Positions 12,492-25,463 of a DNA stretch of 64,000 nucleotides are shown in pieces. Under the pieces are notes generated by a model. It was not told where the DNA came from and searched no databases. It worked only from the letters and a program-made list of their open reading frames with translations. The stretch's first letter is position 1, and each line of letters opens with the position of its first letter. This DNA comes from a virus (taxonomy: Duplodnaviria > Heunggongvirae > Uroviricota > Caudoviricetes): IMG/VR virus record IMGVR_UViG_3300045988_158233. One strand, written 5' to 3'. The position numbers and the translations under genes are program-made.

Positions 12492-12566
12492 GATGGTGTA
12501 GCTCAGCGGTAGAGCAGTTGGCTGTTAACCAACTGGTCGGTGGTTCGAATCCACCCACCATCGCCA
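12492..12566 (+). tRNA. tRNA-Asn (GTT)
   Basis: Cloverleaf by eye: acceptor GATGGTG/CACCATC, anticodon loop CTGTTAA, T-loop TTCGAAT, 3' GCCA. Confidence 0.85.
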
Positions 12567-12571
12567 ATTTA

Positions 12572-12658
12572 GGAGAGTTAGTCCGTAGAGGTAGCGGGGT
12601 AGACTGTAAATCTACTGTCATTGCGACTCGGGTGGTTCGACTCCATCACTCCCCACCA
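12572..12658 (+). tRNA. tRNA-Tyr (GTA), class II
   Basis: Anticodon stem GTAGA/TCTAC with loop CTGTAAA, long variable arm, T-loop TTCGACT, 3' ACCA; one A-C mismatch in acceptor stem, D-arm imperfect. Confidence 0.65.
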
Positions 12659-12662
12659 AATT

Positions 12663-12738
12663 GCCGGTTTAGCTCAGTTGGTAGAGCGCCTGCCTTGTAA
12701 GCAGGATGTCAGCGGTTCGAGTCCGTTAACCGGCACCA
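12663..12738 (+). tRNA. tRNA-Thr (TGT)
   Basis: Acceptor GCCGGTT/AACCGGC, anticodon stem CCTGC/GCAGG with loop CTTGTAA, T-loop TTCGAGT, 3' ACCA. Confidence 0.85.
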
Positions 12739-12962
12739 ATACAACGATAAGATCATTACGGTTAATCGTCGTTCATGTGCACAATGACTGGTCGAAAGGT
12801 AGTGATCTTACCGTTGTGGTGGATTCGCAGACTGATGCGATAGCTTTCTTGGATGTTAGGGAAATGCGGCCGCAAATCTTCCCTTTCGCGAGCGGTGATC
12901 GTCCGTAGTCCTAATTGGCTGCACCGTATGCCGGAGATTCAGTACCGGCTATCACAACGGCC

Positions 12963-13049
12963 GGAGAGTAGGGAGCATGGTGCTCAAGCGGTCTTGAAAA
13001 CCGTCCCATTGCGCAAGCGATGATGGTTCGATTCCATTACTCTCCGCCA
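12963..13049 (+). tRNA. tRNA-Ser (TGA), class II
   Basis: Acceptor GGAGAGT/ACTCTCC perfect, anticodon loop CTTGAAA, long variable arm, T-loop TTCGATT, 3' GCCA. Confidence 0.75.
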
Positions 13050-13234: not shown

Positions 13235-14455
13235 TTAATTAAAACCGAATGAATTAAGTTCTGCTTTGAATTTATCGACCATTTTTTCAACTTCGTTTAC
13301 AATTGCGTGAATCTCTTCGTCTTTTCTCGGATTAGAATTGAGGTCAAAATATGCCTTATATAAGGCATATTTTGACAAGCTTCCTTCAATATTTTCAGAG
13401 AAAATATTGGTACGACCATCAGTTAATAAGATATCAGCAGATCGGGAATTTAAATTATATTTATAGTAAATCTTTATTAGTCTGCTTATCTCTTTTTCAT
13501 TCTTGATTACCCTCTGTCTTTTACCAGCAATATTAAGACTCCAGCCTACATAACTAGTCAGATCGGAATTAAACTTACACACTTCCGCATCAGCTTTTTC
13601 CATATTTAGATTAATATTATTTCTCATGTGTAGCGGTAATTCGTTGAATTTTTGCTGTAAATGCTGTTTGCAGGGATTGTTGTAAGACCACAGAATTGCG
13701 AACGTAGCTCTTTGCATCCGGGTATTCAGATCGATGTTAAAGTTCTCACGATCACGAATCATTTCATCTACATAAAACTCTACAGCTTTTCGGTATTCTT
13801 TGTTAAAGATCTCGGTAACATACATTTCTAAATAATGGACTTTCGAGATTGCCTCATCAAAAAAAAGCTCACTCTCAAAGAAGTTGTATTTATTTAAGAG
13901 ATTAGAAAGTCTACTTAAGTCATAGGTTTTATTATTTTCAATATTAAGACCAAAAATGGCAATTAACAGACTTACTTTATGATTAATACTGCTACGTAAT
14001 TGAGCTATATAAATTCTCTTTTCATCTTCTGCTGATGACAGTAGATAAAACTCTTTATCTAAATAATTTAAAATTAGAATTATGTGATTTACATATTTAA
14101 TGTAAATAGGTTGTTTTGTTACATAATAATAAATGCTTTTGATGGAATTAATGCTCAATTTCGTATTAAACTCTTTGTCATTCAACAAAGTGTTATTTAC
14201 GTCCTCAAGTAATTTATCATGTTGCTCTAGTAATATTCCGTACCATTCCTTAAAAGAGGCTTTTTTCATTTCAAGAAGTGAATCTGCCGTTAATTGTGTT
14301 GCCTTCATTGCAGCTTTTGCACTATTTCTTGCCTCATAAGCAGCCCAAGCAGTAACAAAAGTAGCAAGTGAACCTATAGCCTCTTTGTATTCTTTAGCCA
14401 CATCCCAAAAAATAATAGTTATTACACACAATATGAGAATTAATATTAAAGGCAT
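13235..14455 (-). CDS. AT-rich membrane-anchored protein of unknown function (candidate accessory/exclusion gene)
   Basis: 406 aa, N-terminal TM helix LILILILCVITIIFW, rich in K/N/I/Y; markedly lower GC than neighbours; opposite strand to flanking genes. Confidence 0.6.
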   Translation of the reverse strand: MPLILILILCVITIIFWDVAKEYKEAIGSLATFVTAWAAYEARNSAKAAMKATQLTADSLLEMKKASFKEWYGILLEQHDKLLEDVNNTLLNDKEFNTKLSINSIKSIYYYVTKQPIYIKYVNHIILILNYLDKEFYLLSSAEDEKRIYIAQLRSSINHKVSLLIAIFGLNIENNKTYDLSRLSNLLNKYNFFESELFFDEAISKVHYLEMYVTEIFNKEYRKAVEFYVDEMIRDRENFNIDLNTRMQRATFAILWSYNNPCKQHLQQKFNELPLHMRNNINLNMEKADAEVCKFNSDLTSYVGWSLNIAGKRQRVIKNEKEISRLIKIYYKYNLNSRSADILLTDGRTNIFSENIEGSLSKYALYKAYFDLNSNPRKDEEIHAIVNEVEKMVDKFKAELNSFGFN

Positions 14456-15121: not shown

Positions 15122-16225
15122 ATGAAAAATAGCTTTGACAGAGCACGCGCTGCGGAGAACACCTCAAAAGAGGCGATAGAGTATCTCGAAAGAGCATCTC
15201 AAATGCAGGCCGTTATGATCTCCCAGGTCAGCAATGACATGAGATTCTCGGACGCATTCATGTTATTCACTCGCTTATCTCTGCTGATAACCAGACGTCG
15301 GCCAGAGATCGCTGTTCATTGTATTTTGATACATGTTTTGCCGCACATTGCCGATGTAAAAGTAAGTGACATTAATAGGTTCATGGTGAACCAACTGGTC
15401 AACCCACTAATACTGGATGGCAAAATTGTTATGGGCCGCCGCGTTTTCTCTCTGATGAAGCAGTTCCTTAGCTGGTGCGCCTTCCAGGGGATGATAGACG
15501 TGTCACCGTTAAACGATATGTCACTTAACAAAGTTGCCGGTGGCGCAAAGCCCACACCTCGCGAGCGGAAGCTGACCGACGCAGAGGTATGGGTGTTCTG
15601 GAATATATGGGACTACTTCAATGTGTGTGCTGGTACAAAATGGGCGGCCAGGCTGTGTCTTGTATCAGCAAGACGACCTGACGAAGTACTGCGGGCTAAA
15701 AAAAGTGAGTTCAATCTTAAGCGTGGGGTTTGGAATCAAGGCAAGAGGAACAAATCTGCCCGTGAGCATTCTCTGCCTTTAAGCTCATTAATGCGCACTT
15801 GTATTGAAGAGTTGTTCGAATATGGTAAAGACAGCCAGTGGCTCGTGCCTTCGAATAAAAAAATCGGGAAAGACCTTCCTATGTCTAAAGTGGCAATAGC
15901 CCAGGCATTACGTCGTATTCTGGAACGACCAGAACTGATGGAGCTTGAGCCATTTACACCCCGAGATTTGCGCCGTACTGCGCGTAGTTACTTCCCAGCA
16001 TTAGGCATAAGCCAGGAGGTATCACGTAAAATCATGAACCACAGTCTTGAGGGGATAGATCGGGTCTACGACCGGCACGATTATATGGACGAGATGCGAG
16101 ACGCCTTAGAAAGTTTCTCGACGTACATCGCATCAATCGTAGAGCAACCGGATTTAGACGAAATTGACCACAAATTTAAGGGAGATCGTCTATCAACAGA
16201 GCTTATTCGTGTAAATTTTTCATAG
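15122..16225 (+). CDS. tyrosine recombinase / integrase (P4-type)
   Basis: Catalytic-region motifs LVSARRPDEV (R), HSLPL, TPRDLRRTARS, and C-terminal RVYDRHDYMDEMRDAL with tyrosine nucleophile. Confidence 0.75.
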   Translation: MKNSFDRARAAENTSKEAIEYLERASQMQAVMISQVSNDMRFSDAFMLFTRLSLLITRRRPEIAVHCILIHVLPHIADVKVSDINRFMVNQLVNPLILDGKIVMGRRVFSLMKQFLSWCAFQGMIDVSPLNDMSLNKVAGGAKPTPRERKLTDAEVWVFWNIWDYFNVCAGTKWAARLCLVSARRPDEVLRAKKSEFNLKRGVWNQGKRNKSAREHSLPLSSLMRTCIEELFEYGKDSQWLVPSNKKIGKDLPMSKVAIAQALRRILERPELMELEPFTPRDLRRTARSYFPALGISQEVSRKIMNHSLEGIDRVYDRHDYMDEMRDALESFSTYIASIVEQPDLDEIDHKFKGDRLSTELIRVNFS

Positions 16226-16606
16226 AGACTTTATGGCCTCAACAACCTTTTGTGATGCGCCTTTCTCTTTACCGAATCGCTCGTTATATGCAGCAAGAAC
16301 CTGTTTTTCGTCCTCGTTAAGAGGAGCAGTGCCTTCTTTGTATAAAAATGCTGCGAGTTCGGGTTGGCGTTCTTCCAGCACCATCATCATAAGACGACTT
16401 GGCTCAATACCCAGTGCCAGCGCCAGCGGACGAACCTTATCGATAGGCAAAGGAATTTTGCCGCTTTTAATTAAAGAAAGGTTGTTGGCGTTTTTATACC
16501 CAATTGTTTTGGCTATCTGGGCCTGGCTCATAGGTGAGGATTCAATCAACCCTGCGATAAAAGCAGCGTAGCGACTTTCTATAAATTCAATCTTGTTATC
16601 AGACAT
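16220..16606 (-). CDS. XRE-family helix-turn-helix transcriptional regulator
   Basis: HTH segment MSQAQIAKTIGYKNANNLSLIKSGK; 128 aa; 3' end overlaps integrase stop. Confidence 0.65.
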   Translation of the reverse strand: MSDNKIEFIESRYAAFIAGLIESSPMSQAQIAKTIGYKNANNLSLIKSGKIPLPIDKVRPLALALGIEPSRLMMMVLEERQPELAAFLYKEGTAPLNEDEKQVLAAYNERFGKEKGASQKVVEAIKSL

Positions 16607-16857: not shown

Positions 16858-17070
16858 ATGAACACCACTATTTCCAGCCTAATCGCTCTTGAGATCGGAC
16901 ACGTACAGAAATTAGCTGATGAGTGTGTAGCTGACATCCTCACCGATCTACCGAATGAGCAGATTCAGGTTGGTGTGAATGACACAACTGGATTTATATT
17001 CGAACTTAACAACAAACGCTTCACGCTTCTCAATACCGGCTCCGGGTCTTTAGCCGTCAGAATCTGTTAA
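16858..17070 (+). CDS. hypothetical small protein
   Basis: 70-aa ORF. Confidence 0.4.
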   Translation: MNTTISSLIALEIGHVQKLADECVADILTDLPNEQIQVGVNDTTGFIFELNNKRFTLLNTGSGSLAVRIC

Positions 17071-17168
17071 CCCCTCTTCTCCCTGCGCGAATGGCTTAGT
17101 TCCCTGTTCGCGCAGTGCTACATTAAACACACTAGTAAATAATTTGTTTTCATAACAAAGGATTAGCC

Positions 17169-19277
17169 ATGTCTAAAAAACGTTCCATCAAAGAGGTTCA
17201 GGACTTCCGTGACAGTGTAAAACGAGTAGTCGCTCTCCTTTCAGGTAAAAACATCCCTGTTGCAGAACGAGGGGACGACGCTTATGTACGCTATAACGAT
17301 GATGGAGAGCCAATTCTCGTAAACATCCCATCAATCCCGGATAACGCAACACCGGCATTGATGAATGCTGTGCGCGGATTTCTCGATCATGAGGTTGCTC
17401 ACATTTTGTTTACCGATATTCGTGTGTCCAACAAAATGAGAGAAAAAGGACGCGTTCCTTCCTGGTCGCTATGGAATGCCTTAGAAGACGTGTTCATCGA
17501 GCGAAAAATGGGTCAGGTCTTTAACGGAACAAGACGTAATCTGATGGCAACTCAGCGCCTTATAATCGAAAAAGTCTTTAAACCAAAGGCTTCAGAGGCT
17601 ATTGCTTATTGTGGCAAAGATCAGCGCGCGCTTTTTCTAAACTTCTTTCTCTGTCCGGTTGTAAGAGCCTGGGATGGCCAAGCACCGTTCGTAGATTTCA
17701 TGGATGAATATTGGCCTGTCATTGAGAAACCAATTTCATTATTAAAAGAACATGGTATCGATGTGGCCGTGCGTAACATGTCTTGCACCGAGGATTGTGT
17801 AAAGGTGGCTGCGACCATAGCTAAGATCCTCAAAGACACTGAAAGTGAAAGCAAAGGTAAGGAGTCAGCTCCGGGAAAAACTTCCGATCCTTCAGACGCT
17901 GACCAGACGGATGCCTCTGGAGAAAACAATGAAGACAACGAAGATCATGAGACACCCTCAGCGTTAGATAACCACAAATCTATCAAATCAGAATCACAGA
18001 GTAAGCACAAACATGATAATAACGACAGTGATGATTCAGATAATTCTGAATCATCAGAAACAATATTCGATGATACAGAAAATGATAAAGAGGTATCAGA
18101 TTCTGATGCTTCTGATAACGCGGTGTCAGAATCATTTACCGCTGACCACGAAAAAAGAAAAACGACAGAAGACGGCTCTTCAGATATTCCAACTCCGTCA
18201 AAAATGAGTCTGGAAGAGGCTTTAGAGGAGCTGGATAGCATAGAAGATGAAGTCGGAGGCATGACAGAAGATGCTCTATCCGAAACGATTAAAAGCGAGT
18301 TAACAGAAAGCTCGAAAAGCGAATACAGGCCATACAATCGCTCATACGACTTCATCGGCTCGATTGATCAGGCAGAAGCCCATATCAAACGGCTTATTAA
18401 AACATTCTCCGATATTGATTTAGGAGGATATCCAATCAGCCGCTATCGCATCGTTCCTGAAGGCAACCAGCTCTTCGACAAATATATTGAAAAGCATCTT
18501 TCGTCAGGTGTTTCGTCGACGCTGGCAAAAGACCTGGAGCGAGCAATAGCAAGCAGAAACAGAGTTCAGTTTATACCGGGCCAGCGTCGGGGGCGCATTC
18601 ATGGTTCTAGTATCTACAGATTAGCAATGAATGATGATCGCGTGTTTCGTAAAAAAGAAGAATCTAAAGCCGTTAACGCCTGTGTTCAACAAGTGATTGA
18701 TTTATCAGGTTCAATGAGTGGTATAACGATACAATTGGCTCTTGCAAGTGCATATACCATCGCCGATGCCCTTGATCGAATAAATGTTCCCAACATTATC
18801 ACCGGCTTCACTACATTTGGTAGTCATATGGCGGCAGGAGAACTTAAGGCTGTCAAGTATGAGTTCTCTCGCTTTGAATCTTTAATGCTACCTATCATCA
18901 AAAATTGGAATGAAAAGGTAAATTCTCGCGAAGTTCGCTCACGTATGGGGTGCGTAGGCTACACATTCCCACTTCTTAATAACGTGGATGGTGAAAGCAT
19001 AGCCAGCCTTGCATCGTTATTTTCCGGTCGCATGGAGGACAGGAAGATCATGCTTGTTCTGAGTGATGGCGCGCCGTGGGCTGTTGGGAGAGGTTTTGAC
19101 GCTCATTTGCGTTCGGTTGCGAAGCAAATTGAAACGCAGACTGACATTGATTTGATGGCAATTGGCATCATGACTGACGCACCGGAGAGATTTTACTCAA
19201 ATCATGCCCTGGTAACGAGCGTTGATAGTCTTGGTTCATCTGTAGTTACTGAACTATCTCGTATCATTTTAAAGTGA
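17169..19277 (+). CDS. vWA-domain protein with acidic linker (CobT-like)
   Basis: C-terminal von Willebrand A MIDAS motif DLSGSMSG and ...LVLSDGAPW; long D/E/S-rich middle region. Confidence 0.7.
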   Translation: MSKKRSIKEVQDFRDSVKRVVALLSGKNIPVAERGDDAYVRYNDDGEPILVNIPSIPDNATPALMNAVRGFLDHEVAHILFTDIRVSNKMREKGRVPSWSLWNALEDVFIERKMGQVFNGTRRNLMATQRLIIEKVFKPKASEAIAYCGKDQRALFLNFFLCPVVRAWDGQAPFVDFMDEYWPVIEKPISLLKEHGIDVAVRNMSCTEDCVKVAATIAKILKDTESESKGKESAPGKTSDPSDADQTDASGENNEDNEDHETPSALDNHKSIKSESQSKHKHDNNDSDDSDNSESSETIFDDTENDKEVSDSDASDNAVSESFTADHEKRKTTEDGSSDIPTPSKMSLEEALEELDSIEDEVGGMTEDALSETIKSELTESSKSEYRPYNRSYDFIGSIDQAEAHIKRLIKTFSDIDLGGYPISRYRIVPEGNQLFDKYIEKHLSSGVSSTLAKDLERAIASRNRVQFIPGQRRGRIHGSSIYRLAMNDDRVFRKKEESKAVNACVQQVIDLSGSMSGITIQLALASAYTIADALDRINVPNIITGFTTFGSHMAAGELKAVKYEFSRFESLMLPIIKNWNEKVNSREVRSRMGCVGYTFPLLNNVDGESIASLASLFSGRMEDRKIMLVLSDGAPWAVGRGFDAHLRSVAKQIETQTDIDLMAIGIMTDAPERFYSNHALVTSVDSLGSSVVTELSRIILK

Positions 19278-19291
19278 ACAAAACAGCCTTA

Positions 19292-19314
19292 ACGATAAGT
19301 AACCACTTACGATA
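19292..19314. promoter_or_regulatory. motif B-like palindrome
   Basis: cgataagtaaccacttacgatag between CobT-like stop and CobS-like start. Confidence 0.3.
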
Positions 19315-19372
19315 GATAATGATATATTTATATAAGAAGTTGAACGCTCATTAGAAAACAAAGGAAAAACGC

Positions 19373-20608
19373 ATGACTACTACTGCACTGCAAAATGAAA
19401 AAAATCCTTCTGATTACCTTGTTTGCAAGTGGTGCGGAAAATCATTTCACTATTTTAAGTCCCATGTAGCCAATGGTAATTGCGAGGGCATTCCTGAGTC
19501 AGTAAAAGATGCCGATCCTGACACCGTACTGAAAATGTACACAACACAGTTTCCAGATGAGCCAACGCTATCGAAAAAGGCACTTGATGCAATTCAAGCT
19601 AAACGTGCCGAGCAAAAAAGCGAAATGGCCAAATCATCTGGCGTGACCAGTAGCCCAGGCTACACAGGCACAGTTGAGTACAAGACAGATCTGGTCGCAG
19701 CTCACGAACTGCTAAATGTAACGGTGAAAGAACTCGGAACAAAACGTGGGACGCCGCTCATGGTTAGCGTCAACGTCAATACGCCGTTTCCAGAGTTCGT
19801 TCCAGAAGTGAAGAAGGGATACGTATATGGCGACTTCGAACTGATCAAAGACATTTTCATGATGCTTGAACTTGGCATACCTGGCTATTTGTGGGGTCAT
19901 GCAGGAACAGGCAAATCTTCATTGCCTACACAACTATGTGCTTTGCTCAATCGTCCGTTAATCCGTGCCCAACATACAGCATCAATGGAAGAGGCTCATG
20001 TTACGGGACAAATTCTGGCGCGTGATGGCTCTACGTATTTCGAGCCTGGCTTGCTTGCGCTCGCAATGAAGCATGGCTGGGTTTACCTCGCGGATGAATA
20101 CGACTTTGCGTTTCCACAGATTCTTGGCGTGTATCAGCCAGTGCTGGAAGGTGAAGCGTTGGTCATCAAAGAGGCGACTCCAGAATGGCGTCGCATTACT
20201 CCGCATGAACGGTTTGCTTTCATTGGCACTGGCAACACGAACGGATCTGGTGATGAAACCGGCTTGTACCAGGGTACAAACATCCAGAACGCCGCGAACT
20301 TTTCGCGTTTTGGCATCGTTTCGAATGTGAAATACATGAGCAAAGAGGCAGAGATCAACATGTTGATAAATGCCGGTATCGTGGATGAATACGCAGAAAA
20401 GATGGTTAAGTTTGCCGGTATCGTTCGCGATGGATACGAAGAACACCTTATCAGTCAGCCAATTGGCCCTCGTGAACTTTTGTTGTCGGCCAAGATTGGA
20501 ATGATGCGAGGCGACTTTGTGACAGGTATTGAGCGTTCTTTCATTAACAAACTCCCTTCAGCTTCTGCACAAGCGGCTCGTGAAGTTGTTCAAAAAATAT
20601 TTGGTTGA
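19373..20608 (+). CDS. MoxR/CobS-like AAA+ ATPase with N-terminal Cys-rich segment
   Basis: Walker A GHAGTGKSS, Walker B-like VYLADEYD, N-terminal CKWCG...C motif. Confidence 0.7.
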   Translation: MTTTALQNEKNPSDYLVCKWCGKSFHYFKSHVANGNCEGIPESVKDADPDTVLKMYTTQFPDEPTLSKKALDAIQAKRAEQKSEMAKSSGVTSSPGYTGTVEYKTDLVAAHELLNVTVKELGTKRGTPLMVSVNVNTPFPEFVPEVKKGYVYGDFELIKDIFMMLELGIPGYLWGHAGTGKSSLPTQLCALLNRPLIRAQHTASMEEAHVTGQILARDGSTYFEPGLLALAMKHGWVYLADEYDFAFPQILGVYQPVLEGEALVIKEATPEWRRITPHERFAFIGTGNTNGSGDETGLYQGTNIQNAANFSRFGIVSNVKYMSKEAEINMLINAGIVDEYAEKMVKFAGIVRDGYEEHLISQPIGPRELLLSAKIGMMRGDFVTGIERSFINKLPSASAQAAREVVQKIFG

Positions 20609-20814
20609 TCGTGCGTAAAGGATGTTTCGGCTCTCTTATCGCTGCTTCTGAAACTGGTAAGGCTTGTCTGGTGTGTCCAGACAAGCCCGATTGTCACCAA
20701 TCAGCAAAAGAAGTTGCGATTTCGATGCATGGGAAGTTCGTAGGCTTCCCCAATGACAAAATCAAAAAAACCAGAAAGGTAAAAACACATGAAGGCACTG
20801 ATGGTTCGAACTGA
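20605..20814 (+). CDS. small Cys-rich protein (doubtful)
   Basis: 69-aa ORF with C..CxxCPDKPDC; overlaps polymerase start by 26 bp. Confidence 0.25.
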   Translation: MIVRKGCFGSLIAASETGKACLVCPDKPDCHQSAKEVAISMHGKFVGFPNDKIKKTRKVKTHEGTDGSN

Positions 20815-23800
20815 CTTCTCACTTGGGGAGTCGGCTCTAAAAGCAGAAAACGCGGTGAAGATTGCCAGAGAAGCTGGCTACACCGCTGTAATTTCAGCAG
20901 ATAGCATGAATATTGCGAGCGTTATTCCACTACAACGTGCCGCTGGTGACGACATGGCGGTTATTTGTGGTGTGAAACTAAACATTGTTGATGATCCCAC
21001 ATACGAGCACCGGGCTAAACTTGCTAAAGAATCTATGAGATGTATGGAATCATTAGAGCGGGGACGTAACTACTCGTTTACCGCTCTAATTAAAAATGAG
21101 CAAGGATATCGCGACATCTGCGAACTAATGACGGTGGCCAACACACGAGAACAGTTCTACTTTGTACCGCGTCTCTCGCTCGAACAGTTGGTTTCTACAT
21201 ATGCCAAAGGCAACATCATCCTGCTCACTTCCGACATCGGTAGCGTGTTCCAACGCAACGATTTTGCAAAAATCATAAGCTCACTGATTACAGCGGGCGG
21301 GAAAGACAACTTCTATAGCGTGGTTTATCCGCACCCTACCCCATTCTACGACCAGATTAACGTCCGAGCGATGAAAGTAGCCAGCGCACTGAAAATAGAG
21401 CCAGTAGCGTTCTATCCCGCTTATTACGAATCGATCGACGATGCAGACATTAAAGACATTGCGCACATGGTTACGAACAACATAAAAATCGACCAGCCGC
21501 ATCGTCTGCGTATCCCCCACCAGCGAGATAACGCCGTCAATGGTCGCCGCCATCTCCTTGAGGCGCTTAAAGCCTTCTCCGTTCGCATGGATGTGCCGGT
21601 AACAGCTGCAATGGCCTCAACAACGCAGGACTCCATTATCGAAGCCTGTACATGGCGCTGGCATGAATTGCCACCAGCACTGCCCAAGATGGCAGACGAC
21701 GAGCCTGCAACGCTGATGAAACTGGCTGTTGCAGGGCTGCGCAAACGTCTTACCACAAAAGAGTTTGGCTACACACCACCGGCTTCTGAGAACAGGGTTT
21801 ATGTTGAGCGACTTAAGTACGAAATGGACACGCTTACTCGCCTGGGATTTTGTGGTTACTTCCTGATGGTACGCGATCTGATGAATCACAGCCGTGAAAC
21901 TGGCATTCCTGTCGGGCCTGGTCGTGGTTCCTCCGCTGGCTCTTTGGTGGCATGGTGCATAGGCATAACCAACGTCGACCCTATCCGTCACGGTCTTCTG
22001 TTTGAACGTTTCATCAACCCTGAGCGTCTCGACTTGCCAGATGCGGATTTGGACTTCAGCCAGGCACGTCGCCATGAGGTGATCGAGTATCTGAATGAAC
22101 GATACGGCGAAGATTACGTTGCGGGTATTCCGAACTTCACATATCTGGGCGCAGCCTCTGCACTACGTGACACCGCTCGTATTTATGGTGTGGAGTCCGC
22201 AGATATGGCGGTATCAAAAGAACTGAAGAACGTCGAGGATGATAGCCTTCCATTGGAAGAGCTGCGCGAACAACTGGCAAGTCTCGACAAATACGCGACA
22301 AAATATCCTGATGCATTCAATGCAGCCTGCAAGTTACAAAGCCTTATGCGTGGCTTTGGTAGACATGCGGCAGGGATGATCGTAGCAGGTGTTCCTCTGA
22401 CAGAACGTACACCGGTTGAGCGCCGTGGTGACGCGCGTTGTATCGCATTTGACAAGCGTTACTGCGAGGCTATGGGCCTAATTAAGCTGGACGTACTTGG
22501 CCTAGCAACTCTCGATTTGCTTGATAGTGCAAAACGCTACATTAAAGAGAACACAGGTGAAGATATCAATCTTGATGCCATTTCTCTTGAAGATCGCAAG
22601 GTGCTGGATGGTTTTGCTGCTGGGTACACTCAAGGTGTTTTCCAGCTTGAATCAGGCCCAATGCGCAAGCTGCTTAAAGATTTAGGTGGTGGAATTGAGC
22701 CAATGAGCTTTAAAACGGTCGTCGCTACGACTGCGCTCTTCCGGCCGGGGCCAATTCAGTCAGGCATGTTGGATGACTATGTTTCTGTCGCCAAAGGCTT
22801 TATGACGCCGGAATCATTACACCCCGTTCTTGATGAACTTACCGCGGAAACAAATGGCGTGATTCTCTATCAGGAACAGACGATGAACGCGACTCGATTG
22901 CTTGCCGGCTTCACAATGGCTGAAGCTGACGCTGTGCGTTCCGCAATCGGTAAGAAGAACATGGAAAAAATGAAGAGCATGGGCGAGAAGTTCATCGTTC
23001 AGGCTCAAGCTGGCTGGATAGACGTTGAGCTGGAAGATGGCACTACACAGCGCATTCACCGTGCGGAACATTTTAAATGCGAAGACGGAACTCTGAAAAC
23101 TGTCGAAGAGGCACTTGAGCACGGCGCAAAACTACCTATAAACGCAGTACGCGTTACAGCGTCACATCCAGGGCTATCAGAGATGAAAGCGAAGGAGATC
23201 TGGACCGCATTCGAAAAAAATGGTGCCTACCAGTTCAACAAATCACACTCTGTTGCTTACTCCTTGATCAGTTATCAATCTATGTGGTTGAAAACTCATT
23301 ATCCCGCAGAGTTTTTCGCTGCTGCTCTCACTATTCTTGGCGAAGATAAACACCAGGGGCTGGTTAAAGATGCGCTGACCTATGGTATTCGCGTATTGCC
23401 ACCAGACGTTAACGTGTCATCCAACCGAATCGAGATCCGCACGCTTGAAGATGGCAGCCAGGTGCTGTATGCGCCCTTCTCTGCTGTGAAGGGGTGTTCT
23501 GAGAATGGCTGCCAAGCCATCATGAGAGCGCGAGAAAAAGTTGGCGGCAAATTCGAGTCACTGGCGCAATTCGAAGAAGCTGTCGAGAAACGTGCCTGTA
23601 ATAGTCGAGTGCGCGAATCGCTGCAAAAAGTAGGGGCGTTTGCATCCATCGAGCCAGGTAGTCTGCCAGCAACTGATCCAGAGCGCCTACGCGACCAGGC
23701 TGAATTGATGGGAAACCTTGTCATAGACGCAGTTAAAGCCTCACGTCCGTTTGAGATGAACTCCAAACGTTCGGCTGAGATTAACGTGCTCATGACACGG

Positions 23801-24307
23801 ATGGCGGCTGAAATGGGCTTAGGTGATGAACTAATCCGCCCCAGCATTGGTATTAAGCCGAAAATCATGATCATTCTGGACAATGCGAACGGCAATGATG
23901 CTCGAACCGGTTACTTTATGGAGAACGGATACGACGATTTTAAGGCCAAGCTATTGACGGCTGGAGATTTACGCATGGGCGATCTGTATGTCACAGGCGT
24001 TTGCAAAAAGGTGAAAGACAAAGAAAAGGACTACACCAAAGACGAGATCGGCCAGTTCACCGACTTTATGCGTGAAGAGATCAATCTGGTACGTCCGACC
24101 TATGTGCTGACGTGTGGCAGCCGGGCGACGTCGCTCTTCAACAACAAGATCAAACCATCCGACCTGGTTGGACGCAAAGAGTATCTGCCGGAGCTAGATG
24201 TGACTGTTTTCTACGGATTTAACCCGAATATTTTGTACTTTCGCCCAGAGGAAGGCGAAAAGCTGGAAGCAATTCTTGCAGAGGTAGCGGAGACTATTAG
24301 CAAATGA
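20789..24307 (+). CDS. DnaE-family (Pol III alpha-like) DNA polymerase
   Basis: 1172 aa; palm motifs GYFLMVRDL...GIPVGPGRGSSAGSLVAWCIGIT..DP....LLFERFINPER and ..FDK......GLIKLDVLGL..; N-terminal PHP region lacks His residues. Confidence 0.85.
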   Translation: MKALMVRTDFSLGESALKAENAVKIAREAGYTAVISADSMNIASVIPLQRAAGDDMAVICGVKLNIVDDPTYEHRAKLAKESMRCMESLERGRNYSFTALIKNEQGYRDICELMTVANTREQFYFVPRLSLEQLVSTYAKGNIILLTSDIGSVFQRNDFAKIISSLITAGGKDNFYSVVYPHPTPFYDQINVRAMKVASALKIEPVAFYPAYYESIDDADIKDIAHMVTNNIKIDQPHRLRIPHQRDNAVNGRRHLLEALKAFSVRMDVPVTAAMASTTQDSIIEACTWRWHELPPALPKMADDEPATLMKLAVAGLRKRLTTKEFGYTPPASENRVYVERLKYEMDTLTRLGFCGYFLMVRDLMNHSRETGIPVGPGRGSSAGSLVAWCIGITNVDPIRHGLLFERFINPERLDLPDADLDFSQARRHEVIEYLNERYGEDYVAGIPNFTYLGAASALRDTARIYGVESADMAVSKELKNVEDDSLPLEELREQLASLDKYATKYPDAFNAACKLQSLMRGFGRHAAGMIVAGVPLTERTPVERRGDARCIAFDKRYCEAMGLIKLDVLGLATLDLLDSAKRYIKENTGEDINLDAISLEDRKVLDGFAAGYTQGVFQLESGPMRKLLKDLGGGIEPMSFKTVVATTALFRPGPIQSGMLDDYVSVAKGFMTPESLHPVLDELTAETNGVILYQEQTMNATRLLAGFTMAEADAVRSAIGKKNMEKMKSMGEKFIVQAQAGWIDVELEDGTTQRIHRAEHFKCEDGTLKTVEEALEHGAKLPINAVRVTASHPGLSEMKAKEIWTAFEKNGAYQFNKSHSVAYSLISYQSMWLKTHYPAEFFAAALTILGEDKHQGLVKDALTYGIRVLPPDVNVSSNRIEIRTLEDGSQVLYAPFSAVKGCSENGCQAIMRAREKVGGKFESLAQFEEAVEKRACNSRVRESLQKVGAFASIEPGSLPATDPERLRDQAELMGNLVIDAVKASRPFEMNSKRSAEINVLMTRMAAEMGLGDELIRPSIGIKPKIMIILDNANGNDARTGYFMENGYDDFKAKLLTAGDLRMGDLYVTGVCKKVKDKEKDYTKDEIGQFTDFMREEINLVRPTYVLTCGSRATSLFNNKIKPSDLVGRKEYLPELDVTVFYGFNPNILYFRPEEGEKLEAILAEVAETISK

Positions 24308-24455: not shown

Positions 24456-24481
24456 AGGCCCGTTATATAACGGGCCTTTTA
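24456..24481. terminator. bidirectional terminator hairpin
   Basis: aggcccg-ttatataa-cgggcct followed by TTTT; between DnaE (+) and convergent minus-strand gene. Confidence 0.6.
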
Positions 24482-24482
24482 G

Positions 24483-25463
24483 TTAACAAATTCTATTATT
24501 AACTAGTATAGTATGGAGTTTATTATTTATAGGGGAATACGGATCGAAATCACTCATCATGACACTATTTGATTCGCACGCCTGTTCAAAGGCATACATA
24601 ATTATAGGCATATAGCGCTCATGACATTTTTTAAGTGATTTAACTTCCTCTGATAGATACTCTAGTCGATTGTTACCTCTAATAGCCAATTCCACCTCAT
24701 CATATGAGTACAACAAATCGTTTAAATCACAGAAAAAATTAAAATTTGGTAGTCCATGTTTTAAATCCCCGTCCACAATTGTTTCTTCAAAGAATTCCCC
24801 TAATGCAGTAATGTTTCTCTCAATACCTTCGCATCGTTCAATGATCTTCAGATCTTCACTAGATAGCCATAATCTAAGCCATTTCTCTCTATCCCTTGGA
24901 GATTTCAGATATTGGTCTTCGTTAAATGTTACTGATGTACTTCCTGAGTTATTGTAATCCGCTGTACTTGATAACGATGCGATGGTTTGTTTGTCTAAAT
25001 GCCGCCAGTAAATATCTGGCTCTTCATGCTTATTATCTTCGTTTAGACAAATTAAAACGATCACTATAGGGAAATCGCATTCCCCCCAATACTTTAAATT
25101 TTTATAGGGGATCTGTACTCCTAGACTACTACTCATTGTGCGTGAGGTGGTTTTTACCTGAACGCCAATAAACATACCGGTAGAAAGTTCATTTTCATAG
25201 ATTTCAACCTGTGCATCCAACCCCATATCAATATCCAGCAGTCGACAAGGCCATTTGAAATAACGGGAAATCCAATAAGCAAATAAGTACTCACCAGCGT
25301 GTCCTTCTGCACTGGTCTTCGGATATGTCATGCCTTCAGTTTTATTTTTTTCTGCTGCTGACCTCGCAGACTTAACTTTTGGGGGTGGGGACAGTTCTTT
25401 AGTCGGCACAGGCTTTTCTGCTTTTGCTTGATTGTTAGCTTTATTCATTGATTTTATTCTCAC
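24483..25463 (-). CDS. AT-rich protein with PD-(D/E)xK-like nuclease-fold motif (DUF4365-like, tentative)
   Basis: 326 aa; motif GHAGEYLFAYW...DIDMGLDAQVEIY......GVQVKTT; low GC; opposite strand to neighbours. Confidence 0.55.
   Translation of the reverse strand: MRIKSMNKANNQAKAEKPVPTKELSPPPKVKSARSAAEKNKTEGMTYPKTSAEGHAGEYLFAYWISRYFKWPCRLLDIDMGLDAQVEIYENELSTGMFIGVQVKTTSRTMSSSLGVQIPYKNLKYWGECDFPIVIVLICLNEDNKHEEPDIYWRHLDKQTIASLSSTADYNNSGSTSVTFNEDQYLKSPRDREKWLRLWLSSEDLKIIERCEGIERNITALGEFFEETIVDGDLKHGLPNFNFFCDLNDLLYSYDEVELAIRGNNRLEYLSEEVKSLKKCHERYMPIIMYAFEQACESNSVMMSDFDPYSPINNKLHTILVNNRIC

Follow-up and report, generated by a model that had tools for sequence, protein, structure and literature searches.

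We have analysed a 64,000-nucleotide stretch of DNA from a tailed virus (Caudoviricetes; IMG/VR record IMGVR_UViG_3300045988_158233), called the window below, and concentrate on two adjacent genes at positions 17169–20608 that encode a CobT-like adaptor and a CobS-like AAA+ ATPase. The pair is genuine and strongly conserved, and is not a chance feature. Our preferred reading, which we regard as evenly poised between right and wrong, is that a DNA-tethered hexamer of the CobS-like protein drives an adaptor bearing MIDAS, the metal-ion-dependent adhesion site, and a zincin domain, which, at an early stage of lytic growth and replication, would reshape and perhaps cut a protein associated with DNA.

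The window represents an SSU5-like Escherichia coli phage-plasmid. The 3.4-kb segment holding the pair is 99.4% identical to phage Cyrano, an element also known as plasmid pLF82 from strain LF82. It has at least 95% identity to 194 plasmids in PLSDB, nearly all of them from Escherichia/Shigella and non-mobilisable. Both proteins match PHROG families from end to end, the CobT-like protein phrog_1576 and the CobS-like protein phrog_249, which is annotated as ‘porphyrin biosynthesis’. A tblastn search matched the CobT-like protein to 77 phage records and its CobS-like partner to 494. An exhaustive homologue search, with clusters built at 50% identity, gave 524 representatives at E ≤ 1e-30, a number that rose to 2,680 when the threshold was relaxed to 1e-10 and to 5,081 at 1e-3. 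The first homologue search had been dominated by near-identical enterobacterial clusters, and a search with the Brucella C-domain gave mostly truncated gene calls without the N-domain; the comparison with cellular CobT was therefore drawn from genome loci and plasmid loci. A previous sequence-only reading of this DNA had placed the pair at 17169–20608, with a first protein of 702 amino acids, ahead of a polymerase gene, and had remarked that such pairs occur in large phage genomes. Both open reading frames are confirmed (Table 1), the pair does occur in phages, and the polymerase gene is dnaE.

The CobS-like protein is assigned to Pfam AAA_5 (E 2e-15), and its core, from residue 141 to 411, aligns with residues 38–315 of the Brucella CobS chain (PDB 9ujv) at E 2e-25. 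The alignment made use of the motif identities given for Brucella CobS (preprint 10.64898/2026.07.21.739949), and places the ATPase catalytic elements at G175–K181 (Walker A), D241–E242 (Walker B), N288 (sensor-1), R312 (Arg finger) and R367 (sensor-2). All five of these are invariant (100%) across 121 diverse relatives. The AlphaFold2 model has a pLDDT of 87.5, and its best matches in Foldseek are NorQ (E 1e-15, TM 0.87) and CbbQ (TM 0.87). NorQ and CbbQ are MoxR-class rings that work with a partner containing a vWA domain and MIDAS. The phage protein resembles this class both in its intact AAA_5/MoxR fold and motifs and in having an adjacent gene with a complete MIDAS (DxSxS...T/N...D). With every AAA+ catalytic residue in place, it is predicted to be an active motor. 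The sequence-only reading had called it a MoxR/CobS-type ATPase, which these results bear out, and had suggested a chaperone-like remodelling machine as the probable general role; this interpretation is upheld, since the ATPase model is closest to the MoxR-class NorQ/CbbQ motors.

The same reading had noted an N-terminal cysteine cluster. The cluster (C18, C21 and C37, together with H31) lies within an N-terminal extension of about 100 residues, and by alignment with relatives we assign it to the Ros/MucR family of zinc fingers, so that it is a putative DNA-binding domain. The family pattern is C18-x2-C21(or D)-x9-H31-x4-H36, followed by T-x-E-x-Y56...P61-x-x-P-L-L-S67, with conservation of 100% for C18, 67% for C21 (Asp in the other 33%), 84% for H31 and 85% for H36; the family thus has the four-ligand spacing C-x2-C-x9-H-x3-4-H. 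When a profile of 40 N-terminal extensions was compared with the PDB, its best match was Ros87 (2jsp; E 1.5e-5), aligned across the ligands. Of the same 40 extensions, 34 matched Pfam ROS_MUCR individually, with a best E of 3.6e-8, and several members of the family carry a precomputed PF05443 match. The likeness to Ros87 and PF05443 covers the ligand spacing C-x2-C-x9-H-x4-H, the T-x-E-x-Y...P-x-x-P-L-L-S segment and the Cys-to-Asp variant at the second ligand. This Cys-to-Asp substitution is also found in Ros homologues.

The finger in the window departs from the family pattern. Its predicted ligands are C18, C21, H31 and, after N36, C37, a CCHC variant shared with the enterobacterial subgroup, and it has a 12-residue insertion specific to that subgroup. 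The model is confident over residues 11–87, with strands at 16–17 and 24–25 and helices at 28–33 and 49–59 (pLDDT 83–95), and is compatible with the beta-beta-beta-alpha-alpha fold of Ros/MucR fingers. In Ros/MucR proteins the finger is C-terminal to an oligomerisation domain, whereas the phage ATPase has it at the N-terminus, joined to an AAA+ motor. The DNA bound by Ros/MucR fingers is AT-rich. Phage-borne as well as ‘unexplored’ extra-domain homologues are noted in a review of MucR (PMC7710501); we found no description in the literature of a Ros/MucR–AAA+ fusion. The cellular CobS loci that we examined have no Ros/MucR finger. Other cysteine motifs are seen elsewhere in the family. In Gordonia phage Anamika (L007, 4209–7681), where the ATPase gene comes first, the ATPase N-terminus has CLTC and CKAC instead of the Ros finger, and the CobT-like protein has a CPAC motif; the start of the ‘peptidase’ of cyanophage S-PM2 (L092, 2468–4690) has a CPFC motif. 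Additions of the zinc-knuckle type may recur across the CobST-like family.

In the CobT-like protein, Pfam CobT matches residues 9–294 (E 8e-28) and CobT_C residues 492–701 (E 1e-82), and the chain divides into an N-domain, a linker and a C-terminal module (Table 1). The linker is 31% Asp and Glu and 27% Ser and Thr, with a net charge of −36. Relatives of the protein range from 649 to 790 residues in length, and most of the difference is in the linker; in Brucella CobT the linker, likewise acidic and disordered, spans about 90 residues (preprint 10.64898/2026.07.21.739949). The C-terminal module aligns with residues 347–616 of Brucella CobT, covering both the MIDAS and the shaft (Q373–R413), which in Brucella enters the CobS pore (same preprint). 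Residues D511-x-S513-x-S515, N605/D607 and D633 make up the MIDAS and are 100% conserved in 147 relatives, and the shaft-equivalent residues K454, E457, R458, G471, G475, L482 and F493 are 90–100% conserved in the same set. An acidic linker and a C-terminal vWA MIDAS domain are what the sequence-only reading had described. The shaft is basic in the phage protein (GQRRGR) and acidic in Brucella CobT (LEEGYLD).

The match of the whole protein to Brucella CobT (E 9e-17) is limited to the C-domain. Searches of PDB chains with the N-domain, alone or as a five-sequence profile, gave chance matches only, and Brucella CobT_N was not found. Homology of the N-domain to CobT rests on Pfam CobT and on a profile–profile alignment (E 1.5e-4, with a probability of only 51%). 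The model of this domain (pLDDT 93.3) consists of a helix, a three-stranded sheet and a helical bundle; Brucella CobT_N has the same topology, and was termed M48C-like by its authors (preprint 10.64898/2026.07.21.739949).

The N-domain contains the signature of a zincin. Conservation here was computed on 147 sequences, at most 50% identical to each other, and is 98–99% for the residues of the HExxH motif and of the ‘glutamate helix’ (Table 1) and 100% for G70, D73 and G120. HExxH is present in the N-domain of 143 of the 146 full-length best representatives (pairwise identity at most 50%). In the model, H74, E75 and H78 lie on the helix formed by residues 62–81, and E106 and E111, either of which could be the third zinc ligand, on the helix formed by residues 99–117. 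This is the gluzincin (M48/M56-like) arrangement, with HExxH on one helix and a Glu on the following one. The zincin histidines are retained in the cyanophage S-PM2 ‘peptidase’ and in the ICP2 and Gordonia homologues; an apparent loss of HExxH in ICP2 was a MAFFT misalignment, and direct inspection shows HECYH at residue 64. This degree of conservation points to strong purifying selection on the viral-type zincin site.

Cellular CobT is different. HExxH was found in none of 78 CobTs from Hyphomicrobiales, and is also absent from four further cellular CobTs of other orders, from Pandoraea, Sphingomonas, Cereibacter and Caballeronia. The profile–profile alignment places the Hyphomicrobiales sequence G-D-S-M-A-L-R opposite the phage sequence L-D-H-E-V-A-H, and cellular CobTs read G-x-x-D-[SA]-x-A-L-[RQ] at the position of the motif. 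Because the motif is degenerate in all 82 cellular CobTs checked and intact in the viral type, the chelatase adaptor looks like a pseudo-peptidase. The contrast also suggests where the chelatase adaptor came from. We note that the cobT gene of a Brucella-like assembly (GCA_012103055.1; L011, 3316–5380) is split by a frameshift, its protein being called as a 459-residue fragment, and that many database ‘CobT’ entries among the search matches are similar truncations.

The pair shares with CobS and CobT the AAA+ motifs, the vWA domain with its MIDAS, the shaft, the acidic linker and the M48-like N-domain, which we read as homology of architecture and not as shared function. Compared with the Brucella CobSTN complex (PDB 9ujv, 9uka), the phage genes form the same two-gene unit, with identical catalytic motifs in the CobS-type core and the same CobT architecture; they differ in belonging to a separate clade, in having no CobN partner, in the added Ros/MucR finger and in keeping HExxH...ED..E. 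The CobS-like protein scores 84.8 bits against NCBIfam TIGR01650 (CobS; cut-off 558.55), and the CobT-like protein 72.6 bits against TIGR01651 (CobT; cut-off 759.05), the latter with a match to the C-domain only. There is no cobN, cob or cbi gene among the 118 annotated features of pLF82, and the ribonucleotide reductase encoded by pLF82 is the class Ia enzyme NrdAB, which is independent of B12. In a rough and unrooted tree built from C-domains by neighbour joining, a single bipartition on a long branch (0.35) unites the cellular CobTs, and the window protein falls outside it among very diverse phage-type sequences. De novo synthesis of B12 in E. coli requires the introduction of cobN, cobS, cobT and about 25 other genes (PMC6249242). 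On the grounds of the scores, the missing cob genes, the class Ia reductase, the separate clade and the need of E. coli for heterologous cobN, cobS and cobT, the pair is very probably not a cobaltochelatase (EC 6.6.1.2), and the label ‘cobalamin/porphyrin biosynthesis’ is probably wrong. The sequence-only reading had seen no cobalamin context, which the full pLF82 annotation confirms; it had proposed the comparison with bona fide CobS/CobT, and had named clear orthology to chelatase subunits together with other cob genes as the evidence that would speak against it. We found neither.

For archaeal and cyanobacterial viruses, a published hypothesis has viral CobST hijacking host CobN (PMC8651126). 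A true auxiliary metabolic pair of this kind, boosting cobalamin synthesis with host CobN, would agree with the true homology to CobS and CobT. For E. coli this explanation is close to refuted, and we attach hardly any belief to it: the scores, the reductase and the lack of CobN all stand against it, the host has neither the aerobic pathway nor hydrogenobyrinic acid diamide (PMC6249242 and established knowledge), and the pair has an active-looking zincin and a Ros finger, both of which are foreign to a chelatase. Moreover, the genes listed as expressed by the LF82 lysogen (PMC9928086, Table 1) do not include the pair, which is therefore not a lysogenic-conversion gene.

Some of the names given to these genes deserve comment. 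The Cyrano record (OV696614.1; L001, 12001–15440) labels the pair ‘dimethylbenzimidazole phosphoribosyltransferase’ and ‘cobalamin synthetase’. These labels describe what the unrelated CobT and CobS of Salmonella do, and are a name-collision error; other records have ‘porphyrin biosynthesis protein’. Cellular cobS–cobT-like pairs do not adjoin cob genes either (L097, 5005–7842; L100, 4973–7689; L011, L098, L099). The neighbours are urease genes (ureG) in Pandoraea, a GTP-binding protein and an amidohydrolase in Caballeronia, and bolA and a J-domain gene in alphaproteobacteria. Some bacterial ‘cobalt chelatase’ pairs may serve other clients too.

The genomic position of the pair is conserved across very distant phages. 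A block consisting of CobT, CobS, sigma70_r2-like or small open reading frames, and DnaE is found in phages of E. coli, Rhizobium, Pseudomonas and Stenotrophomonas, and the CobT–CobS–DnaE block recurs in all four of the diverse 95–124-kb elements sampled (L093–L096). In two of these (L093 and L095) an integrase and a divergent helix-turn-helix (HTH) gene lie upstream of the pair, an arrangement like that in the window. In the podovirus ICP2 the pair is located a few small open reading frames upstream of primase-helicase-PolA, and in the T4-like cyanophage S-PM2 it is flanked by gp47/gp46 on one side and gp45/gp44/gp62 on the other. The pair thus accompanies the replisome genes of three polymerase families, which argues against both a polymerase-specific partner and a structural role, and fits an early DNA-associated function. 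A role specific to DnaE, such as metallation of its PHP domain, was downgraded on finding the pair with PolA-type and T4 gp43-type replisomes. The sequence-only reading had left the role of the pair as unknown; the client indeed remains at candidate level, and the conserved adjacency to replication genes narrows the role.

The mechanism that we propose is as follows. By analogy with Brucella CobS6–CobT and with NorQ–NorD, the CobS-like subunits would form a hexameric ring, the CobT-like shaft would enter its pore, and ATP hydrolysis would move the adaptor, whose MIDAS face would hold the client. From the domains present, the ring could be tethered to (AT-rich) DNA through up to six Ros/MucR fingers, and the client could be cleaved, or at least gripped, by the zincin domain. 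A DNA-associated protein would in this way be removed, unfolded or processed early in the lytic cycle, which would let the phage replisome form or do its work; the machine would probably be turned on together with the phage's DNA polymerase. The client might be a silencing or nucleoid protein of the host, parts of the host replisome borrowed by the phage DnaE, or a roadblock; pLF82 encodes DnaE, but its annotation lists neither a clamp nor a clamp loader. The intact motor residues, the MIDAS, the conserved shaft-equivalent segment, the zincin signature and the co-orientation with dnaE downstream of a divergent repressor are seen in the sequence, and the Ros/MucR-family finger is assigned through its relatives.

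Several points weigh against this mechanism. The client is named at candidate level only; gene position is only circumstantial support for a role in replication; and we found no experiment on any viral CobST pair in the literature. The finger is an addition of the enterobacterial, rhizobial and pseudomonad branch, and is absent from the CobS proteins of ICP2 and the cyanophages. The window's own finger segment, a divergent CCHC variant, gives no ROS_MUCR match at E ≤ 0.1, and because it is not significant alone its assignment rests on alignment with relatives. Finally, catalysis is not universally required, since in two lineages, Pseudomonas Nickievirus and Stenotrophomonas phages, the homologues have lost the histidines of HExxH and yet the pair is kept in the same place.

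Other explanations account for parts of the same evidence. The pair could be a chaperone for metal-cofactor maturation, comparable to NorQ/NorD, CbbQ/CbbO, CoxD/E or the chelatases, that supplies metal to a phage or host metalloenzyme of DNA or nucleotide metabolism (for example NrdB of the class Ia reductase, the DnaE PHP domain or the metallophosphoesterase), in which HExxH/E would handle metal and would not be a protease site. The closest structural relatives of the ATPase, NorQ and CbbQ, and its closest sequence relatives, the chelatase subunits, are in keeping with this, as are the metalloenzymes encoded by the element (NrdAB, PHP-domain DnaE and a metallophosphoesterase) and the conserved His2Glu and MIDAS sites, both of them metal binders. 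It nevertheless leaves the finger on the motor unexplained; the associated polymerases differ (DnaE, PolA and PolB-type), with no single metalloenzyme partner obvious; and HExxH...E carried by a fold of the M48 type is how the catalytic site of a peptidase is normally built. We consider such a chaperone unlikely.

An improbable alternative is host takeover, counter-silencing or a switch, in which a DNA-bound complex evicts or degrades a repressor, a xenogeneic silencer of the H-NS/MucR type or a defence protein and thereby opens phage DNA to transcription, with no tie to the replisome, and adjacency to dnaE reflects early timing only. Going downstream from the divergent repressor, the first two large genes are this pair; it has an integrase and HTH gene upstream in L093 and L095, and is followed in most relatives by a sigma70_r2-like gene; its finger is of the MucR type, MucR being the AT-rich silencer of alphaproteobacteria (PMC7710501). 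Against this, the strictly lytic ICP2 and the T4-like cyanophages carry the pair inside replication clusters, enterobacteria use H-NS and not MucR, and PADLOC gave no credible defence-system match for either protein (a DrmE match at E 0.0014 was discarded because it falls on the low-complexity linker). For the pair of the same domain architecture in T4-like group 2.2 jumbo phages, a MoxR ATPase with a vWA–metallopeptidase adaptor, Iyer et al. (2021; PMC7824862) assigned a function in virion assembly, as chaperone and maturation protease by analogy with the MoxR of ATV tail development. We find this very improbable for the window pair, which in every lineage examined lies in the replication or early region, far from structural genes, and whose DNA-binding finger would be unexpected on a capsid or tail chaperone. 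The jumbo phage pair was not linked there to CobS/CobT, to replication modules or to a Ros/MucR finger.

Comparison with known systems places the pair more precisely. Viral ‘cobST’ and cyanophage cobS (PMC8651126; PHROG 249 and PHROG 1576) belong to the same family, and the S-PM2 ‘peptidase’ and CobS have HExxH, DxSxS and Walker A as in the window pair. The systems NorQ–NorD, CbbQ–CbbO and RavA–ViaA follow the same logic, with a hexameric motor and a MIDAS adaptor from the adjacent gene; they mature respiratory or carbon-fixing enzymes, and lack DNA-binding and zincin domains. Midasin is among the sequence matches of the ATPase. In Rea1/Midasin an AAA_5 ring and a MIDAS pull factors off pre-ribosomes, and p97/Cdc48 with SPRTN/Wss1 combines an AAA+ motor with a DNA-dependent zincin that clears DNA–protein adducts at forks. 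The likeness to Midasin and p97–SPRTN/Wss1 is a functional analogy only (a motor, a MIDAS or adaptor and a zinc protease acting on a nucleic-acid-bound client), and no sign of shared ancestry with SPRTN/Wss1 is seen. It was already known that the pair exists, that it is homologous to CobS/CobT and that it is widespread in viruses (PHROGs, NCBI names, PMC8651126), and one earlier paper notes the peptidase–vWA–MoxR architecture (PMC7824862). Three things appear to be new: the quantified contrast between the intact viral and the degenerate chelatase zincin site, the Ros/MucR finger on the motor, and the synteny with replication genes across polymerase families.

Table 1. Positions of the gene pair, its domains and motifs, and the neighbouring features of the operon within the window.
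Feature	Position	Strand	Basis
CobT-like adaptor, 702 amino acids	17169–19277	+	Pfam CobT and CobT_C; phrog_1576
N-domain, residues 1–225, predicted zincin/M48-like fold with intact HExxH...ED..E site	17169–17843	+	motif and model
H74-E75-V-A-H78, predicted HExxH zinc-binding/catalytic motif	17388–17402	+	H74 99%, E75 99%, H78 98%
E106-D107-x3-E111, candidate third zinc ligand (‘glutamate helix’)	17484–17501	+	each 99% conserved
Acidic Ser/Thr-rich linker, residues 225–385, presumed disordered	17841–18323	+	composition
C-terminal module, residues 440–702: equivalent of CobT ‘shaft’, then vWA with MIDAS	18486–19277	+	Brucella CobT alignment
CobS-like AAA+ ATPase, 411 amino acids	19373–20608	+	Pfam AAA_5; phrog_249
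Ros/MucR-type zinc finger (predicted), residues 16–67	19418–19573	+	family pattern; profile against Ros87; Pfam ROS_MUCR in relatives
AAA+ core, residues 141–411	19793–20608	+	residue-by-residue alignment to Brucella CobS
Divergent HTH regulator, homologue of Cyrano CYRAN_45 ‘putative repressor’	16220–16606	−	Pfam HTH_19; phrog_8
Open reading frame of 70 amino acids, first of rightward operon, = CYRAN_46	16858–17070	+	phrog_2627
Stable RNA hairpin between 70-residue frame and cobT-like start, no U-tract	17083–17115	+	folding
Cys-rich open reading frame of 69 amino acids (GKACLVCPDKPDC), overlapping cobS-like stop and dnaE start	20605–20814	+	phrog_6337
DnaE-type DNA polymerase III alpha, last operon gene	20789–24307	+	Pfam PHP, DNA_pol3_alpha, finger, HHH_6
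Bidirectional terminator-like hairpin closing the operon	24456–24477	.	9-bp stem, 6 GC pairs, T-rich tails on both strands

The remaining features of the operon are listed in Table 1. The HTH regulator marks the switch region upstream of it, and for its Cyrano homologue CYRAN_45 the expression reported from the LF82 lysogen is 10x above background (PMC9928086, Table 1). The hairpin ahead of the cobT-like gene has a minimum free energy of −22.8 kcal/mol (z = −3.1; none of 200 shuffles folds as well), and is possibly an attenuator or an RNA-processing site. The double overlap of the 69-residue open reading frame suggests translational coupling; in Rhizobium and Stenotrophomonas phages and in metagenomic relatives its slot holds a sigma70_r2-like gene and a small open reading frame. 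DnaE has a C-terminal domain resembling family-4 uracil-DNA glycosylase (TIGR00758, residues 1053–1170, E 1.6e-7; about 23940–24300), and this fusion is also present in all four of the distant relatives sampled (PF03167, L093–L096).

Differences from Cyrano are seen on both sides of the operon. Just after the dnaE terminator lies a gene for a DUF4365 protein (24483–25463, minus strand), which PADLOC matches to ‘Aga_REase-PNTD1-PNTD2’ (E 2e-10). Cyrano/pLF82 have cspG and hicAB at the same place, so this site looks like a variable hotspot for cargo or defence genes. On the other side, a tRNA cluster at 12492–13049 comprises Asn, Tyr, Thr and Ser; the annotation of the Cyrano record has Asn, Thr and Ser but no Tyr. 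After the tRNAs, an open reading frame of 406 amino acids (phrog_18168; 13235–14455, minus strand) replaces the shorter CYRAN_43 of Cyrano; no Cyrano gene is expressed more strongly in the lysogen than CYRAN_43, at 723x background.

A stronger claim, which we regard as doubtful, is that viral ‘cobS/cobT’, counted among cobalamin auxiliary metabolic genes in hundreds of phage genomes and in marine viromes, is a replication-associated segregase–protease, in which a MoxR-class ring, held on DNA by the Ros/MucR finger in this branch, pulls on a MIDAS adaptor whose zincin cleaves a DNA-bound protein (a host silencer, a replisome component or a roadblock), and that cellular CobT is a pseudo-protease derived from such a machine. 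If this were true, the pair would be the bacterial-virus counterpart of the logic of p97–SPRTN/Wss1 or Midasin. Cyrano/pLF82 and SSU5 are workable experimental systems, and the substitutions E75Q, E242Q, D511A and, in the zinc finger, C18S are offered as mutational handles. SSU5-like phage-plasmids, which carry resistance genes, are frequent in clinical Enterobacteriaceae, and their lytic switch is therefore of practical interest too. Thousands of database entries label these genes as cobalamin or porphyrin biosynthesis, and virome studies count them as B12 metabolism. The family is very large and is found in the replication modules of phages with three different polymerase families, and these names may conceal a general step in phage DNA replication or early takeover that has gone unrecognised.

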